This document shows, one piece after another, positions 3,051 to 48,182 of a stretch of DNA of 64,000 nt. Source of the stretch: Octopus vulgaris (lineage: Eukaryota). The stretch is from NCBI GenBank assembly GCA_951406725.2, contig OX597816.1:58900001-58964000 (forward strand). The letters are read 5' to 3'. The notes below the pieces were generated by a model. It was not told the origin of the DNA and searched no databases. It was given only the letters and a program-made list of their open reading frames with translations. Numbering within the stretch: the stretch's first letter is position 1; the number at the start of each line of letters is the position of its first letter. The position numbers and the translations under genes were made by a program.

Positions 3051-4119
3051 TTTGAAGGCCAGATTTTCCTAGTTAACTAAACAATTTGAAACTTCGTATA
3101 CTGGTAGAATGTGTCAAAAGAAAACATAATTGTAAACAAAATTGAAAACAAAATTGTTATTCGTAACTTAAACGTAGTTTAATTTTTACGAATTTTAACC
3201 AATAAAATACCAACATCTTCGAATTTTAACCAATGAAATCCCAGCATTGCTGCGTTATCGATATTGATAAAGAAATATAGCAGACGTACCACGCACACAC
3301 ACACACACACACACACATTTGCACAAGCACATAGTAATTAATATATAAGCGTACACACACATACAAACGGACATATACAGACACACACACACATAGTAAT
3401 TAATATATAAGCGTACACACACATACAAACGGACATATACATACACACACACACACACACACAGTAATTAATATATAAGCGTACACACACATACAAACGG
3501 ACATATATATATACGCACACAAGCAAAAATACACGTTCGTGTTTTGCCACTTGCAAATTTGCACAAAAGGTGGGGTCAATGTTTCATCGTTTCGGGGTCG
3601 ATAAATTAAGTACCAATTACGCACTGGTGTCGAGGATTTTTTTCCCAATTTATATCACAGCTTCCGACAAGCTGGGGGCATCCTTTTATGAAAAGATATT
3701 TCGCAAACTTTTACAATACGATTCACACTCCACGCGCAAACTCGAGACCGATTTTGTTTTTGTTGTTTCTGGCCCTTCAAAACCATGGGAGAAGCCTTTT
3801 CGGTAAAAAAAAATAAAGAAAATATTCAAAAAATATCGTTAATACTTTTATTGGGCGACGAAATATCTCGATTTAAGAGATATAACTGTTATTTCTAGCA
3901 CATGTAGAAGACAGAAGAAGAGGTAAATAATTTGAGCTCGAATGCTGCGATTTCATTGGTTAAAATTCTTAAAATTAAACTACGTTTAAGTTACGAATAA
4001 CAATTTTGTTTTCAATTTTGTTTACAATAATGTTTTCTTTTGACACATTCTACCAGTATACGAAGTTTCAAATTGTTTAGTTAACTAGGAAAATCTGGCC
4101 TTCAAAAAGAAAAGATCCC
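3051..4119. mobile_element. Non-autonomous DNA transposon with ~200-bp terminal inverted repeats
   Basis: 3051-~3250 is the reverse complement of ~3941-4106. The same end (...TCTGGCCTTCAAA...AAAAGATCCC) recurs at 19611-19776. Contains three ~60-bp tandem units at ~3330-3510. Confidence 0.8.
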
Positions 4120-38266: not shown

Positions 38267-38305
38267 GGCGCAGGAGTGGTTGTGTGGTAAGTAGCTTTGC
38301 TAACC

Positions 38306-40357
38306 TTCGTCTGAGTTAGACGTGTTATTTTGCTGCTCCGGATGCCACGTTGTTTCAACGTGAACTATTGAACATTTGACTCGACTACAGGTAGGCGTTT
38401 TGTATTTTTGGGAGCGAAGTGAAGTTTATTGCTTGCATTTAATGTTTTTTAGCATTAAATATTTTTTTAGCAGATAATAAGGCTCCACTTTGCTCCGGAT
38501 ATAATTTTTCTGCCTGTTGTCGAGTGTAAAGAAAATTGTGTTTTTGAGGCGGCATAGTCCGTCTGCAAAAATTATTTTTGAAATTGTCGTTGTGTTATCC
38601 ACGGGATTTACCAAGGATTATTTTACCAAGGTGTTTCACCAACAGTGTATTTGGCCTGGAATACAATTTTTGGCCGAAAAAGTGAACAAAAAAAAAGAAA
38701 AATTAATTCCTTTGTCTGAATTTGAACTCTCTTTCTCCGTCTATCATTCATTTGTAAAAAAAAAAAAAGAACTTTTTTTGAACTGCCATTTTAATTTTAT
38801 TTCTTCCCTTCTGTTGCTTTTTTCATTCTCCTTTCTGTGTCTAATTTATTTTGTAACATTTTGAACTGTTTTTCTTACGTTATGGCAAGGAATTTCACTG
38901 TGTGGGAATTGACACCTCCCAAAAAGTACTTAAAGGAGCTCGAGGACAGAACCGTGGTGTTGAGGACATATTCGAGGTCGCTCGATACCATAATGGTTTT
39001 CCCAAAAGCCACCATTATGAACGAGCTGGCAGATTATATGCCAGCCGTTAAATATATTCAACGGGGAGCCAAATACGCAACGATTTGGTTGCTGTTTGAC
39101 TCCCCTAAAGCAGCTTGCGATTTCGCGAGTAAGCCCATTGAGGGCGAAGAGATTCTGTTTCTCCCAAGCTATAGGGGGAAAAAATTGATACGATTATGGG
39201 TCTGCGGCCTGTCGCCCGGCTTTGAGCCCGAGTGGGTGGAAGATTCTATCCGACGGGGTCTGAGTGGTGGTAGTGCCAAGATCCTGAACGTGAGAGTGCA
39301 GCCAGCGGCCGATTGGGAAGGGTCAAAGGCTACTTTGACTCTGTGGACTCAGTCGGCCAAGAGTTTGGTTTTGCCGGACTTCTTGAGGATGGCCGGGTCC
39401 AAGTATCCGGTGATACTGGAGGGACGCCCCCCCCCCCAAGTGTCACCTGTGTTCGGAGACCGGCCACATTAAGAACTGCCCCAGGGACCAGAGCAGGATC
39501 CTGGAGAAGTTAATATCAGAGCCTCTCCCTGCCCCACCAATGGAGGGAGAGAAACAAAGTGAGGAAGCGGCAACTTCCTCAACAAAAAGAAAAAGAAAAG
39601 TGGGGAGCAATGGTGACCCACCAAAAGAACCGGAGGCTGCGGAAGAAAAAGAGGACCCGGTGCGTACAACACCGGAACCTCAACCTCCCGAGGCCCAGCG
39701 TAAAAAGAAAAATCAAAAGAGGAACGGGACGCCACCAGCGGACTGTAACACCCAGATGGCGTCTCCCATGTGTCCTCCGGCGATTGTGATGCCGGAGAAA
39801 TTTTATGTAGTCCTCTTCCATAAAGGAGGCACTGTAGAAAACGAAATAGGTAAGATGAGGAAGAGAAACCAATGGGAGGGACTTCGGTCCTGCATGGAGT
39901 ATCCCGAGTGGCCTTCGCAGCTGGCTGCGGAGGTCCTACTCGAAAATGATATGTGCAGGATCGAGAATTCTTTCCCGGAGGATCTCTTGCAAGTCATACC
40001 TGTATGCGGAAGCCTGACGATGGACGATTGCGTCATTAAAGCAAGAGAGTTCATCGGTCGGGTAACGTAAAATTGTAATTGTGTTACATTGTGACAGAGG
40101 TTTATTGCCTCTGAAGAGACTTTTAAAAGTGTAAATTGTAAATTGAAATTTTTGTGAAAATTGTTTGAATTTTTGTAATTTTTGAAATTTTGTAAATTAT
40201 TGAAAAAAAGAACATTGTTTTAGAGAAGCAAAAGTCGGCGGGCGCTTTCTGACTTCTCCCATCACCATCTTCATCAACCACCATCATCATCCATTAATGT
40301 CCTTGTCCAGCCCGTAGCTACTCTGTGTGCTGCCCTAGTGGCAAATTAAATGAAATA
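38306..40357 (+). mobile_element. Element A: near full-length ORF1-only L1/Tx1-like retroelement
   Basis: Flanked by target copies at 38289-38305 and 40358-40373; AGACGTG at 38318; one ORF; ~290-bp 3'UTR ending in AATAAA. Confidence 0.8.
38882..40070 (+). CDS. Gag-like ORF1 (RRM-like folds, CCHC knuckle, unknown C-terminal domain), ~395 aa, one frameshift
   Basis: Track ORFs 38837-39472 and 39540-40070 join by removing one C from the 11-C run at 39427-39437: EGRPPPKCHLCSETGHIKNC. Confidence 0.75.
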
Positions 40358-40373
40358 AAGTAGCTTGCTTACC

Positions 40374-41153
40374 TGAAAGCTGCGGGAGAGGAGAACCCGG
40401 TGCGCACAGCTCCGGAACCTCAGCCTCCCGTGGCCCAGGGCAAGAAGAAAAAGAAAAAAAAGAGAAACGGAGCGTCGCCAGCGGATTGCTACACGCAGAC
40501 GGCGGTTCCCGAGTATCCCGGGTCCTCTCAGGCGGGTGTGCCACCTGAGGGACAATTCGTGGAAGATTTTGTGCTCCTCTTTTCTAAAGGAGAAAAGGTG
40601 GAAAGCACCGTAAGAAAAGTGAGAAAGAAAGGACGTTGGGAGATACTCCGAACCTGTACGGAGAACCCCGAGTGGCCTTCGCAGTTGGCTGCGGAGGTCG
40701 TGAGAAGGGCTGATCTACACGGGATCGTGGGTTCCTTCCCAGCGGACTCCTTCGAGATTATACCTCTGGACACTGACCTGACCAGCGAGTATTGCCTCAA
40801 TGAGGCAAGAGCGATGGTCGGCCGTGTCACATAGGTTGTGTAACATCTTTGTAACATGTGGAAGAGGAGGTTCATTGCCTCCTCTAAAATTTGTAAAATT
40901 TGTAATTGAATGTTAATTTTAACATTTTTGTAACAGGTTGAAGAGAAGGTTCATTGCCTACTCTAAAATTTGTAATTTGTAATCATTGTATTAAATGTAA
41001 TTATTGAACATTGTTTTAGAGAAGCGAGAGTCGGCGGGCGCTTTTTGACTTCTCCCATCACCATCTTCATATACCACCACCATCATCCATTAATGTCCTT
41101 GTCCAGCCCGTAGCTACTCTGTGTGCTGCCCTAGTGGCAAAATTGTTGAAATA
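40374..41153 (+). mobile_element. Element B: 5'-truncated paralogue of element A, ORF ends at 40834
   Basis: Shares PVRT.PEPQPP, PEWPSQLAAEV and GRVT-stop; near-identical last ~140 nt; followed by target copy 41154-41169. Confidence 0.85.
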
Positions 41154-41294
41154 AAGTAGCTTGCTTACCAACCACATGGTTCTGGGTTCAGTCCCACTGC
41201 GTGGCACCTTGGGCAAGTGTCTTCTACTATAGCTTCGGGCCGCCCAAAGCCTTGTGAGTGGATTTGGTAGACGGAAACTGAAAGAAGTCCGTCG

Positions 41295-41325
<31 letters not shown>

Positions 41326-42250: not shown

Positions 42251-42725
42251 GTGTGTGTGTATATATATATATGAGTACTCAGCATCTTAAATCTGTTGTA
42301 ATACTTACAACATTTAATGAAATGATGTAGTACGAAACGATCGTACCAAATTACCGGCGTAATTTGATTATAATCACCCCACGGATTTTCATGGATAACA
42401 CCATACAAAATTCTGGTGCATCTAAATTAAGTACCACATTCATTTGAATCTAAATTTTTGCTGAACTTATATATATATATATATACCAACCTCCCCTCTC
42501 CACGCCACCAGTGTTATCCAAGGGAAAGACAAAGGTCGATACAGCTTGGCACCAGTGACGTCGCAACTCATTTCTACAGCTGAGTGAACTGGAGCAACGT
42601 GAAATAAAGTGCCGTGCTCAAGAACACAACACGCAGCCCGGTCCGGGATTCGAGCTCACAACCTCACGATCGTAAGCTCGACGCTCTAACCACTGAGCCA
42701 TGCGCCTTCACATATATGCGTCTAC

Positions 42726-42788
<63 letters not shown>

Positions 42789-43141
42789 CGCATATATGTG
42801 AAGGCGCATGGCTCAGTGGTTAGAGCGTCGAGCTTATGATCGTGAGGTTGTGAGCTCGAATCCCGGACCGGGCTGCGTGTTGTGTTCTTGAGCAAGGCAC
42901 TTTATTTCACGTTGCTCCAGTTCACTCAGCTATAGAAATGAGTTGCGACGTCACTGGTGCCAAGCTGTATCGACCTTTGTCTTTCCCTTGGATAACACTG
43001 GTGGCGTGGAGAGGGGAGGCTGGTATGCATGGGCGACTGCTGGTCTTCCATAAACAACCTTGCCCGGACTTGTGTCTAGGAGGGTAACTTTCTAGGTGCA
43101 ATCCCATGGTCATTCATGACCGAAGGGGGTCTTTACCCTTT
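42088..43141. mobile_element. CORE-like tRNA SINE S4: full copy 42800-43141 (+), inverted copy 42483-42726, internally deleted copy 42088-42205
   Basis: A/B boxes; GTGTTCTTGAGCAAGGCACTT...CACTCAGCT core; flank CACATATATGCGTCTACA shared by all three. Confidence 0.85.
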
Positions 43142-43194: not shown

Positions 43195-44845
43195 ATTTTT
43201 ATTACAGCCACAAGGGCCTAACACAGAGGGGACAATACAAAGACAGACAGGACAGCATAGTGGGGACAAAAACCTAAAACGAATGTAAAATGAAAAATGG
43301 TAATACGTACAATGAAATCGATGAAGATGAAATGGCTGCATGTGCCCCACTCACATGCAGCACCATTTAAACGTTCTTACTGTCCGTTTTATAATCCATG
43401 TTTTTAGTCTCTTTGAATCTTTTGTTTTACTCTTTTGGGTTTTTTTTTTTTCATAAACACAAGTTACTCTCTCTCTTCTTTTAAATTCCTTTAATATACG
43501 GTTCTTAATTCACTGATGATAGTTCTGTCGAACTCTACCTGGAAAGTTGGTGGTTCGAGTCTGCATTTTTTCTTTCCACCTGCTGTATCTTTCTTTGTCT
43601 ATTAGAATCACCTTCACACTCTCAGCGTAACTGTCCTTTGGCAACTTCACCCTTATGACCGATTTCATCTTGCTTAATCATCTTTTCCGTGCATACATTT
43701 TGTGTCGTATTTTACAAAACACCAATTGTACTTTCTCCGTTCTTGCTCACTGTGTTCTGCTCTTGGCGTCACTCTACCCATTTCAGTCGCTGTCGCTTCT
43801 TCCTCTCGCTGCTGTTCTACTTCATGGGTTAAACGACCCTCCAGTCTGCCTGCTTCCACCTGTTCCTCCTCCATAACTTCCTTCTCAACCTCCTTTTCAA
43901 CCTCCTTTACAACTGCTTCCTCTATCACCTTTATTCCATTTTTCTTTTTCTGTCTCTCGGACGGAGAGCCCTTTCTTTTTCTTTTTTTTAACAACTTCGA
44001 ATCCCTCCTCTGCCTCTTTCTCCTCCTCCTGTACCCCATCATTCACTTTCTCCTGCTCCTCCGACTGTTCTATTTCTTGTTCTCTTTCTTCTCTCTGGAG
44101 GCACCTCGCCTTCATGTGGCCTTTCTCGCCACACAAATAACATCTGGGAGGCCTGCCCTCCGCCACTACTCTCAATCTCACATCTTCTGGCAGAATTATT
44201 TCTTCTGGGATCCTGATCCTATCACTATCAGTTGCCTGAAGTGACATCTCGATCCCGTATCCCCATCAATACACCTTTCTCGTTCTTGTCACTCTTAGCA
44301 TCCTGGCATTTTCTTCCATATTGTGTAATATCGCTGCAACCAGCAATGTCTCCTCTAATTCTGATGGTATTTTTCCTATCCTCACTCGAAAAACTCTTCT
44401 GCCGCAGTAAGTTGGTAGGAAAACCCACTCTTCCGATTTTGTGGCATCAGTGGAGTGCAATACCGCTTCGACGTCGCTATGAAAACGCACCTCCACTGTG
44501 CCATATTTTCTTCCTCTTGTTATAAATGTCGTCTTCTTTTAATTACTTGTAATCTCTTCTCAATTTCTTCAATTGGTGCTATTTCAATTTTCTTTGACGA
44601 TACTTTCAGAGTTTTATAAATAATGGTTTTTCTCTTTACACCATATATTAAATCGAGTGTAGACTTCAATTTTAGATTGTGGCCTTCTCTTTCTAAAAGG
44701 TTGCCGCATTCCATCAACCTTTCCGACTCGATTTTCACCTTTCGTACTTCCAAATCCTGGACTGCAACACCTTTCCAGTTGCATCCACATAACTGTGGCT
44801 CTTGGCTGGTTCAGTTTGCGTAGCCCTTCTCGTTGGTTCTTCCAT
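43195..44845 (-). mobile_element. Element C: degraded ORF1-only L1/Tx1-like retroelement
   Basis: FLPTYCGRRVFRVRIGKIP and EGRPPRCYLCGEKGHMKARC (CX2CX4HX4C) align with element A; frameshifted; ~300-bp 3'UTR ending in AATAAA at 43198-43203. Confidence 0.8.
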
Positions 44846-45540
44846 AACGCTCGGAGTTTACAGTAACAGCATTTCCATTATTGTCTTCAAAAATGTAAGG
44901 ACCAATGATGGCAGCTTTTCCCCCAGCACACCAGACCGTCACTTTTGGGCCGTGCAGTGGTCTTTCGTGTAGTTCTCTCGAATTTTCAAGTGCCCAATAA
45001 CGACAGTTCTGTTGATTCAGCATGCCACTGAGAAGAAAATGAGCTTCATCACTCATTAACATTTGCCTCAAAAATTACTTCCATCTGACGTGCGAAGTTA
45101 AGCCGCTCTACATAGTCCCATGGTTACAACTGTTGCCCAATGACCTATTTGTATAGGTGGAAATGCAGGTCTTCATGCAAAATACGCCGATTACAGATGC
45201 CAAGTTCAGTGGAATTCCTCCGAGCAGAGCGATTAGGATTCCGCATCAAAGCTTATCTGACGCGTTCCACATTTTTCGGGGTCCGTACCGTTCGTGGCGA
45301 CCCAACCAGTTTCCTATTCATTAGTGTACCTCGTGTACGAAGTGCATTCATCCAACGTAAGATTGTGTTACAGGTAAGAACAGCCTGATTTCGGTCAATG
45401 TTGAAGTAGCGCCTAAACTCACGCTGAACTGCTGTGACAGACTCGTTATTCTTCACGTAGCAATCATAGACAAACACACGATGCTCTATCGTTCTCAACG
45501 CCATGGCCTCTGAAAAGAAAAAAAATGCTAAGACACTATG
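44846..45540 (-). pseudogene. Tc1/mariner-superfamily transposase 5' part (DUF4817-type HTH, rosa/DD41D-like)
   Basis: EHRVFVYDCYVKNNESVTAVQREFRR...; SDEAHF.LSG..N.QNCRYW...PLH.PKVTVWC...IIGPY.FE...TVNSERY. Confidence 0.85.
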
Positions 45541-47385: not shown

Positions 47386-47607
47386 TACTAATATAGGATG
47401 AAGTTTTTTCTCTACAGAAAAGAATTCCATCAAGAAATGTGGCAGCATATTAAAATACCTTTACGGTTAAAATTATAAACAACTTATAAGAAAGGGCTAA
47501 AGAAAAATTATTTCAAAGCCAATATGCTGATTTTCCACATATAATCTACACGCAAGATTGAATTGAAGTCGGGCAAGCTAACCTTTAGAACATTTAAATT
47601 TCGTTAT

Positions 47608-47667
47608 CTCTATATTGAATCAATTTCGGAATTAATCTCATAAAAGATTTATTCGTCTTCAGTAGAG
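47608..47667 (-). ncRNA. Type I hammerhead fold (inverted copy)
   Basis: CTCTA-CTGAAGA-stem II-GAAA-TTGATTCA-ATA-TAGAG on the minus strand. Confidence 0.7.
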
Positions 47668-48182
47668 CTTACGAGAGAATATAAATAAGATACTTACATG
47701 CGCCTATGGAAAAAGCCGAAGCAAAAAAACATAAGTACATTTAAGTACCCCAGTTATATCTAAAAATATAGAGATAACGAAATTTAAATGTTTTAACGGT
47801 TAGCTTGCCCGACTTCAGTTCAATCTTGCGTGTAGATTATATGTGGAAAATCAGCATGTTGGCTTTGAAATAATTTTTCTTTAGCCCTTTCTTATAAGTT
47901 GTTTATAATTTTAACCGTAAAGGTATTTTAATATGCTGCCACATTTCTTGATGGAATTCTTTTCTGTAGAGAAAAAAACTTCATCTTATATTAGTAGTAG
48001 ACTTATGACTACCAGCTACAGAGACTGGTAACCACTATAATCTGTAGTGGCGAACAGTCAACACGTTGTTCTGAGGCTGACCAAAGAATTTTTATTTTTA
48101 GATATAACTGGGGTACTTATGTTTTTTGCTTCGGCTTTTTCCATAGGCGCATGTAAGTATCTTATTTATATTCTCTCGTAAG

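Follow-up and report, generated by a model that had tools for sequence, protein, structure and literature searches.

A large, old family of ORF1-only LINEs at a fixed site in a tRNA-like SINE of Octopus vulgaris

A 64,000-nucleotide stretch of the Octopus vulgaris genome (here called the window; G000:C3:58900001-58964000, in a genome of 2.8 Gb) contains a unit of ~2.05 kb with an open reading frame of the LINE ORF1 type and no reverse transcriptase (RT) or endonuclease. A preliminary description, made from the sequence alone, took this unit for a member of a non-autonomous family that supplies its own RNA chaperone and borrows ORF2 in trans. The question raised by the locus is whether the lack of ORF2 is a property of a family or of one damaged copy and, if of a family, which element moves it. 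Such a family also bears on why ORF1-only LINEs keep ORF1. The unit, element A, proves to be a broken member of a large, old octopus family of ORF1-only LINEs; the copy itself looks like an ordinary dead one, and it is the family that is unusual. Very probably, A descends from an old ORF1-only non-LTR retrotransposon lineage that inserts at one fixed site in the head of a tRNA-like SINE and is likely mobilized by the endonuclease and RT of a two-ORF L1/Tx1-type element at the same site. Both the site specificity and this co-targeting candidate helper had been overlooked in the preliminary description.

Element A, its ORF1, and the absence of ORF2

Re-reading of the sequence upheld the bounds of A (38306 to 40357, plus strand), and its dimensions proved close to the earlier estimates: the 5' UTR (38306 to 38881) measures 576 nt rather than ~575, AGACGTG is present near its start at 38318 to 38324, and the 3' UTR is 287 nt long rather than ~290. 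ORF1 (38882 to 40070) begins with an ATG at 38882 and stops at 40068 to 40070. The length of ~395 amino acids given for it holds for frame-intact genomic copies, which encode 393 to 402 amino acids, but not for the window copy, in which a C11 run (39427 to 39437) contains a frameshift that splits the ORF. Likewise, a CCHC knuckle is present (39441 to 39479) but in A is one residue short (CX2CX4HX3C). The 3' end required more revision, because the first two bases of the target complete the reported AATAAA and the reported target site duplication (TSD) is the fixed SINE target site.

A and a 5'-truncated element, B, are stacked within one SINE, the head of which precedes A and the body of which resumes after B. 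Read along the plus strand, the 5' part of the host head with its A-box-like motif (38267 to 38288), which is the same head as in an uninterrupted SINE, is followed by the left target copy (38289 to 38305; 17 nt, a variant with one extra T), A, the middle target copy (40358 to 40373), B (40374 to 41153), the right target copy (41154 to 41169), and the B-box-like motif and SINE body (41170 to 41299, running on further). The tRNA-like character of the head rests on its alignment with tRNAs of the same genome (z of 5 to 6; up to 5.8 against shuffles, with 27 distinct tRNAs), and an Rfam search with the head gave no tRNA match.

The RRM-like segments and knuckle noted earlier are supported by structure prediction and fold searches, which point to an RRM-RRM-CCHC protein. 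AlphaFold, run on a 50-sequence alignment (mean pLDDT, 78), predicted a protein in which two RRM-like domains are followed by a CCHC knuckle and, after a disordered linker, by an alpha/beta domain at the C terminus. By the model of the intact copy P0004, the two predicted RRM domains (about amino acids 11 to 100 and 100 to 181) correspond to 38912 to 39424 in A, and the C-terminal domain, with its WP.Q motif, lies at 39795 to 40067. Foldseek placed tandem-RRM proteins on top, and the best VIA match was the La RRM (Z, 9.7; rmsd, 2.8; 83 aligned). Pfam, run on the ORF halves of the window copy, found nothing beyond weak knuckle matches. The C-terminal domain is present across ORF1-only subfamilies, down to 17 to 30% identity. 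Its model (pTM, 0.65) had no Foldseek match at an E of ≤0.001 and a best VIA Z of 5.6, to a common ferredoxin-like arrangement; no sequence relatives were found among 7,995 longer candidates, which is weak evidence. Among named proteins, the closest comes from Octopus sinensis (65% identity). One member of the ORF1-only clade, P0005, is annotated as the O. sinensis gene LOC115225585, a warning that ORF1-only ORFs get annotated as octopus genes.

Two findings had been named as fatal to the ORF1-only, non-autonomous reading, namely, ORF2 after this ORF in most copies and a protein without similarity to the ORF1 of L1/Tx1 elements. Neither was obtained, and the reading is supported. Over 195 amino acids, the core of A-type ORF1 is 27% identical (E, 8e-21) to its counterpart in a two-ORF L1/Tx1-type element, and ORF1 was followed by the tail, without ORF2, within ~2.05 kb at 27 of the 30 best-matching loci (window copy counted); the other three were interrupted or rearranged. 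These loci come from a genome DNA search with A that gave 41 matches from the 40 scored of 1,481 candidates, a sample of best candidates from which a rare ORF2-bearing member of the clade may have escaped. At L023/L038, one of the three interrupted loci, an ORF2 does lie after an A-type ORF1, but it is part of a two-ORF element that is nested there and brings its own ORF1. When loci were selected by a tail motif excluding the target (744 matches, first 30 taken), ORF1 was found upstream in 23 and ORF2 in none, and in a distant subfamily found via the C-terminal domain (150 matches) ORF2 was absent within 1.5 kb downstream at all 30 loci. A census of the last unit at 40 occupied junctions (all 31 listed on C2 and the first 9 on C3, the window's own left out) gave 24 ORF1-only units, 7 two-ORF units, and 9 unassigned. 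The family has the following features of an ORF1-present non-autonomous LINE: a LINE-type ORF1, family-wide absence of RT and endonuclease, many copies, and, as marks of target-primed insertion, a TSD and 5' truncation. One 1.26-kb unit with the common tail had no ORF match (L121 unit 2, G000:C1:106803763-106812093) and is possibly a non-coding passenger or a decayed copy.

Elements B and C had been cited together as evidence that the layout of A recurs. B is 70.6% identical to A over 805 nt and is a 5'-truncated copy of a sister subfamily at the target. Element C (43196 to 44847, minus strand), which interrupts or adjoins a Tc1/mariner-like remnant at about 44850 to 45500, was rejected as a member of the family and is no evidence about it, because it has no DNA similarity to A, lacks the C-terminal domain, is closer in ORF1 to the two-ORF partner (39% identity versus 27% to A), and does not end at the SINE site. 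C represents a separate ORF1-only family of ~1.7 kb, with ORF2 at none of 20 loci (1.5-kb flanks).

The target site and a candidate helper

The target of the A family is a fixed 15- to 17-bp site between the A- and B-box-like motifs of the abundant SINE head, the two motifs being assigned by the box consensus. Exact-pattern counts over the genome gave 53,949 empty 33-nt sites and 469 occupied 3' junctions, a number that misses older tail variants; reversed controls gave 0. All 24 tails printed from A-family copies end at the same 15 to 17 bases, and a strict pattern places the tail end at the target in 26 of the 30 loci selected by the tail motif. Tails of the distant subfamily are at the target in 24 of 30 cases and elsewhere in 4, the remaining 2 loci having no tail.

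Longer flanks revealed arrays of units separated by target copies, and in four of them (L047, L048, L050, and L201) ORF1-only and two-ORF units are arranged head to tail. The two-ORF units at the target are 5.4 to 5.7 kb long. That of L048 (~5.7 kb) lies between two target copies and has an intact ORF2 of 1,140 amino acids with an APE endonuclease (PF03372), an RT (PF00078), and a zf-RVT domain (PF13966). In a search of the PDB, ORF2 of this element matched human L1 ORF2p with an E of 7e-66, as against 1e-21 for R2, and 26 of 30 3' ends of its family are at the target. Its combination of an ORF2 with APE, RT, and a C-terminal zinc motif, an RRM/CCHC-type ORF1, and this target preference is consistent with Tx1, an assignment based on domain layout and targeting rather than on an RT tree with named Tx1 and L1 elements. 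RRM/CCHC-type ORF1s have been linked to Tx1 in the available text of one report (PMC5203782). Over its full length the element has a 28% match to an unnamed fish element; for ORF1 of this type, a profile match to a fish element ORF1 was weak (P, 49%), and look-alikes in the atlas, including ZCCHC3-type RBD clusters at 0.87 to 0.90, provide a lead. Relatives of its ORF2 in limpet and a fish (clusters P0094, P0123, and P0124) occur in runs of neighboring locus numbers, which suggests that they too are in tandem target-specific arrays.

A and the two-ORF element also have a 3' hairpin in common, which in A has a 4-bp stem and a 5-nt loop (40331 to 40343). Among 107 distinct tails, 81 fit a 4-bp stem with a 4- to 6-nt loop and 26 do not; the stem shows compensatory swaps (T-A/C-G, 69/10; C-G/T-A, 73/7) with three mismatched pairs. 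The shuffle test applied to the hairpin ignores relatedness among copies and overstates its significance because the tail copies are related. With target and hairpin in common, the two-ORF L1/Tx1-type element is likely the helper of the A family, from which ORF2 would be borrowed in trans.

Apart from the hairpin at the 3' end and a short motif at the 5' end, A and this element have almost no DNA similarity, and the sampled helper is therefore not necessarily the parent, nor necessarily the sole donor. That the ORF1-only lineage is instead mobilized by a different, unsampled L1/Tx1 family, or keeps its ORF1 for another role, such as helping or restraining the helper in trans, seems improbable to us. 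The low DNA similarity, the presence of further two-ORF L1/Tx1-type families in the genome (L038, L039, and L042), and the annotation of P0005 as an O. sinensis gene would agree with it, but all 7 two-ORF terminal units among the 40 junctions match the sampled helper ORF2 at >90%, and selection along many dispersed subfamilies, described below, is what use of ORF1 in cis predicts.

The candidate helper and one ORF1-only subfamily have both been active recently, as two helper copies are near-identical over 801 nt and units of the subfamily at two distant loci are ~98% alike. This subfamily also forms an array (L201/L202, G000:C1:223.69-223.71 Mb) in which seven near-identical ORF1-only units, 98.7 to 99.9% alike, are followed by a two-ORF unit inside one SINE.

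Ancestry, selection, and mode of spread

In trees of the ORF1 core, the O. sinensis protein falls together with the ORF1-only elements in a single clade, which contains no two-ORF member in the sample. Support for this clade was 100/100 in a careful tree of 24 rows, with a stem of 1.38 changes per site, and its SH-aLRT was 100 in a quick tree of 67 rows (22 duplicate-place rows dropped). Judging from these trees, the clade of A goes back to what appears to be one old ORF2-loss event. Loss of ORF2 seems nevertheless to be recurrent, because the A clade, C, and a deletion product of the helper (L063/L206) look like separate losses. This product is 2.7 kb long, lies at the target, joins helper ORF1 to the end of ORF2, and groups with the helper; its copy at 3758 to 6452 of L206 (G000:C6:18355001-18364000) is a fresh half-element.

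Comparison of dN and dS among copies, which the preliminary description had proposed, pointed to purifying selection with a ratio of about 0.2. In 11 named pairs of ORF1 copies dN/dS was 0.11 to 0.34, and over the core of 30 copies it was ~0.2 in all bins with a dS of >0.08 and 0.37 below, the sample being restricted to frame-intact copies, which may favor low ratios. Shared changes in the ORF1 core gave 0.21 and singletons 0.45 (Fisher P, 0.015); since the singleton pN/pS is 0.45 and not 1, mutation bias may lower all ratios somewhat. Purifying selection on ORF1 would fit a protein used by its own RNA. Contigs from runs X8 and X16, labeled as other organisms (organisms B and C), cover most of 38306 to 40357, one piece at ~90% identity, and the family is therefore probably common to related species. 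Parts of the unit are also covered by contigs of runs that may be RNA, to which we give no weight as a sign of expression.

Given these results, it is very doubtful that the units are recurrent, dead-on-arrival internal deletions of the co-targeting two-ORF element with no lineage of their own. L063/L206 demonstrates that such products exist, but it groups with the helper, whereas A-type copies have one common length and layout, an ORF1 in a separate, fully supported clade, a dN/dS of ~0.2 between subfamilies, and a C-terminal domain for which profile comparison found no match in helper ORF1. The low ORF1 identity to the helper and the separate clade led us to reject A as a recent deletion of that element.

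Joint spread of the SINE and the ORF1 unit, either in the form of a composite retroposon or through DNA duplication, with the constant flank hitchhiking, is also highly unlikely: the seven-unit array could come from tandem DNA duplication, which may have contributed to it, but the same base, with the site duplicated, is occupied by units of 90 to 1,200 bp that differ in their 5' breakpoints, by many 5' types unrelated to one another, and by two-ORF elements. In 38 of 46 closed insertions, the left and right target copies agree in the two-state variant of the host, and in the L049 array a rare host variant is repeated at all three junctions. The truncated units at one site and the L049 variant are evidence of independent insertion.

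Transcription, mechanism, and known relatives

In Drosophila, the DPE lies at +28 to +32. The DPE-like AGACG of A (38318 to 38322), a putative element named from its sequence motif, lies 12 nt past the target copy, or 28 nt on when the count begins within the target. With the second A of the target copy as the point of reference, 33 of 113 junctions have an RGWCG beginning at +27 to +29; they span at least seven 5' types, one two-ORF type included. In 25 more junctions the motif is at +57/+58, and 5' ends there carry an extra piece of ~29 nt resembling a decayed target. The 5' ends of L129, L143, and L159, of the main helper subfamily, have a decayed target-like copy with a DPE-like motif 12 nt on, and give the impression that the element has taken in an upstream target. 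An available portion of the literature puts the LINE DPE at +25 to +28 (PMC4748587), and the spacing found here hints that part of the promoter comes from the target. Certain variants recur among left target copies but are not found in right copies; an extra T, for example, is present in 6 of 64 left copies, 5 of 36 middle copies, none of 102 right copies, and none of 24 empty sites. Together, the spacing and the left-copy variants fit a start of transcription inside the upstream target copy.

In the mechanism that we favor, a Pol II transcript would start at or just inside the upstream target copy, and ORF1 protein would coat its own RNA. Helper ORF2 would then bind the 3' hairpin, nick the SINE site, and reverse-transcribe there, and the insertion would separate the A- and B-box-like motifs of the SINE. 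Each insertion would duplicate the target, so that later elements would stack beside earlier ones. The result would be a nest of three levels, with the SINE as target, the LINE as helper, and the half-LINE as passenger. With a deep, selected lineage of many subfamilies, a candidate helper whose ORF2 is intact, a precisely defined target of 16 bp, and a short RNA signal with covariation at hand, the use of ORF1 in cis, tail recognition, and target-dependent transcription each become testable. A further-reaching reading, which we put forward as speculative and unlikely as a whole, would make these elements an ancient guild of ORF1-only hyperparasites. The initiator-like start would come from the target and the DPE, 28 nt downstream, from the element, so that a copy would be active only when at the target or behind another unit; the C-terminal domain peculiar to the lineage would recruit helper ORF2, and the guild would disable the dominant SINE of the genome by splitting its promoter boxes.

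By analogy, the arrangement resembles HeT-A/TART and HAL1. In the accessible text of a review, ORF1-present non-autonomous LINEs are listed for no clades other than Jockey, L1, and CR1, which are represented by HeT-A, HAL1, and Ag-Sponge, respectively (PMC5786205). HeT-A, whose transcription is described as starting upstream of its own unit (PMC1636488), likewise has a zinc knuckle and no ORF besides ORF1, and it lies in head-to-tail arrays together with a two-ORF element that has been proposed to reverse-transcribe it (PMC1636488, PMC5786205; available parts). As far as these sources describe it, HeT-A differs in being of the Jockey clade and at chromosome ends, whereas the A lineage is L1/Tx1-type, has a short 3' UTR, and occupies an internal SINE site with target duplication. 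A-family insertions are at internal SINE sites on many contigs, and the ORF2 of the partner is L1-like, so the family is not HeT-A in the strict sense.

Mammalian-type L1 elements have a coiled-coil/RRM/CTD ORF1 and a poly(A) tail. The A family has an RRM-RRM-CCHC ORF1, and its tails end in AAATA directly at the target without poly(A), which sets it apart from HAL1 in the strict sense. Like the A family, HAL1 is described as non-autonomous and encoding only ORF1p, and it is said to have originated several times (PMC5753468; available part); unlike it, HAL1 derives from mammalian L1, whereas a conserved 3' hairpin and a fixed target characterize the A family. Ag-Sponge is another non-autonomous LINE with ORF1, but it is derived from CR1, and the available portions of its descriptions do not mention target specificity (PMC5786205, PMC3414825).

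A parallel in targeting is Tx1-Mar with SINEU-3, in which, according to the accessible text, a Tx1 element prefers a site in another repeat, a non-autonomous passenger occupies the same site, and tandem insertions flank a target duplication (PMC4494074). The SINEU passenger is non-coding, however, whereas that of the A family codes for a selected ORF1. Tx1, Keno, Kibi, and Koshi are further target-specific Tx1 families in that text, and the targets it gives are DNA transposons, LTR elements, snRNA and 5S genes, satellites, and microsatellites, in contrast to the SINE head used by A (PMC4494074). L1-Tx1 has been reported from octopus, the parts available mentioning neither targeting nor ORF1-only forms (PMC13282606, PMC8967140). 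A literature search, which covered sources outside Repbase/Dfam, subscription journals, and octopus-repeat supplements, returned no SINE-targeting or ORF1-only Tx1 family.

Repeat finders run over the whole window gave output swamped by microsatellites. Two long, near-perfect inverted repeats lie at 42483 to 43026 and 47404 to 47977, with arms of 244 and 213 nt (98%), and are repeat copies around a microsatellite.
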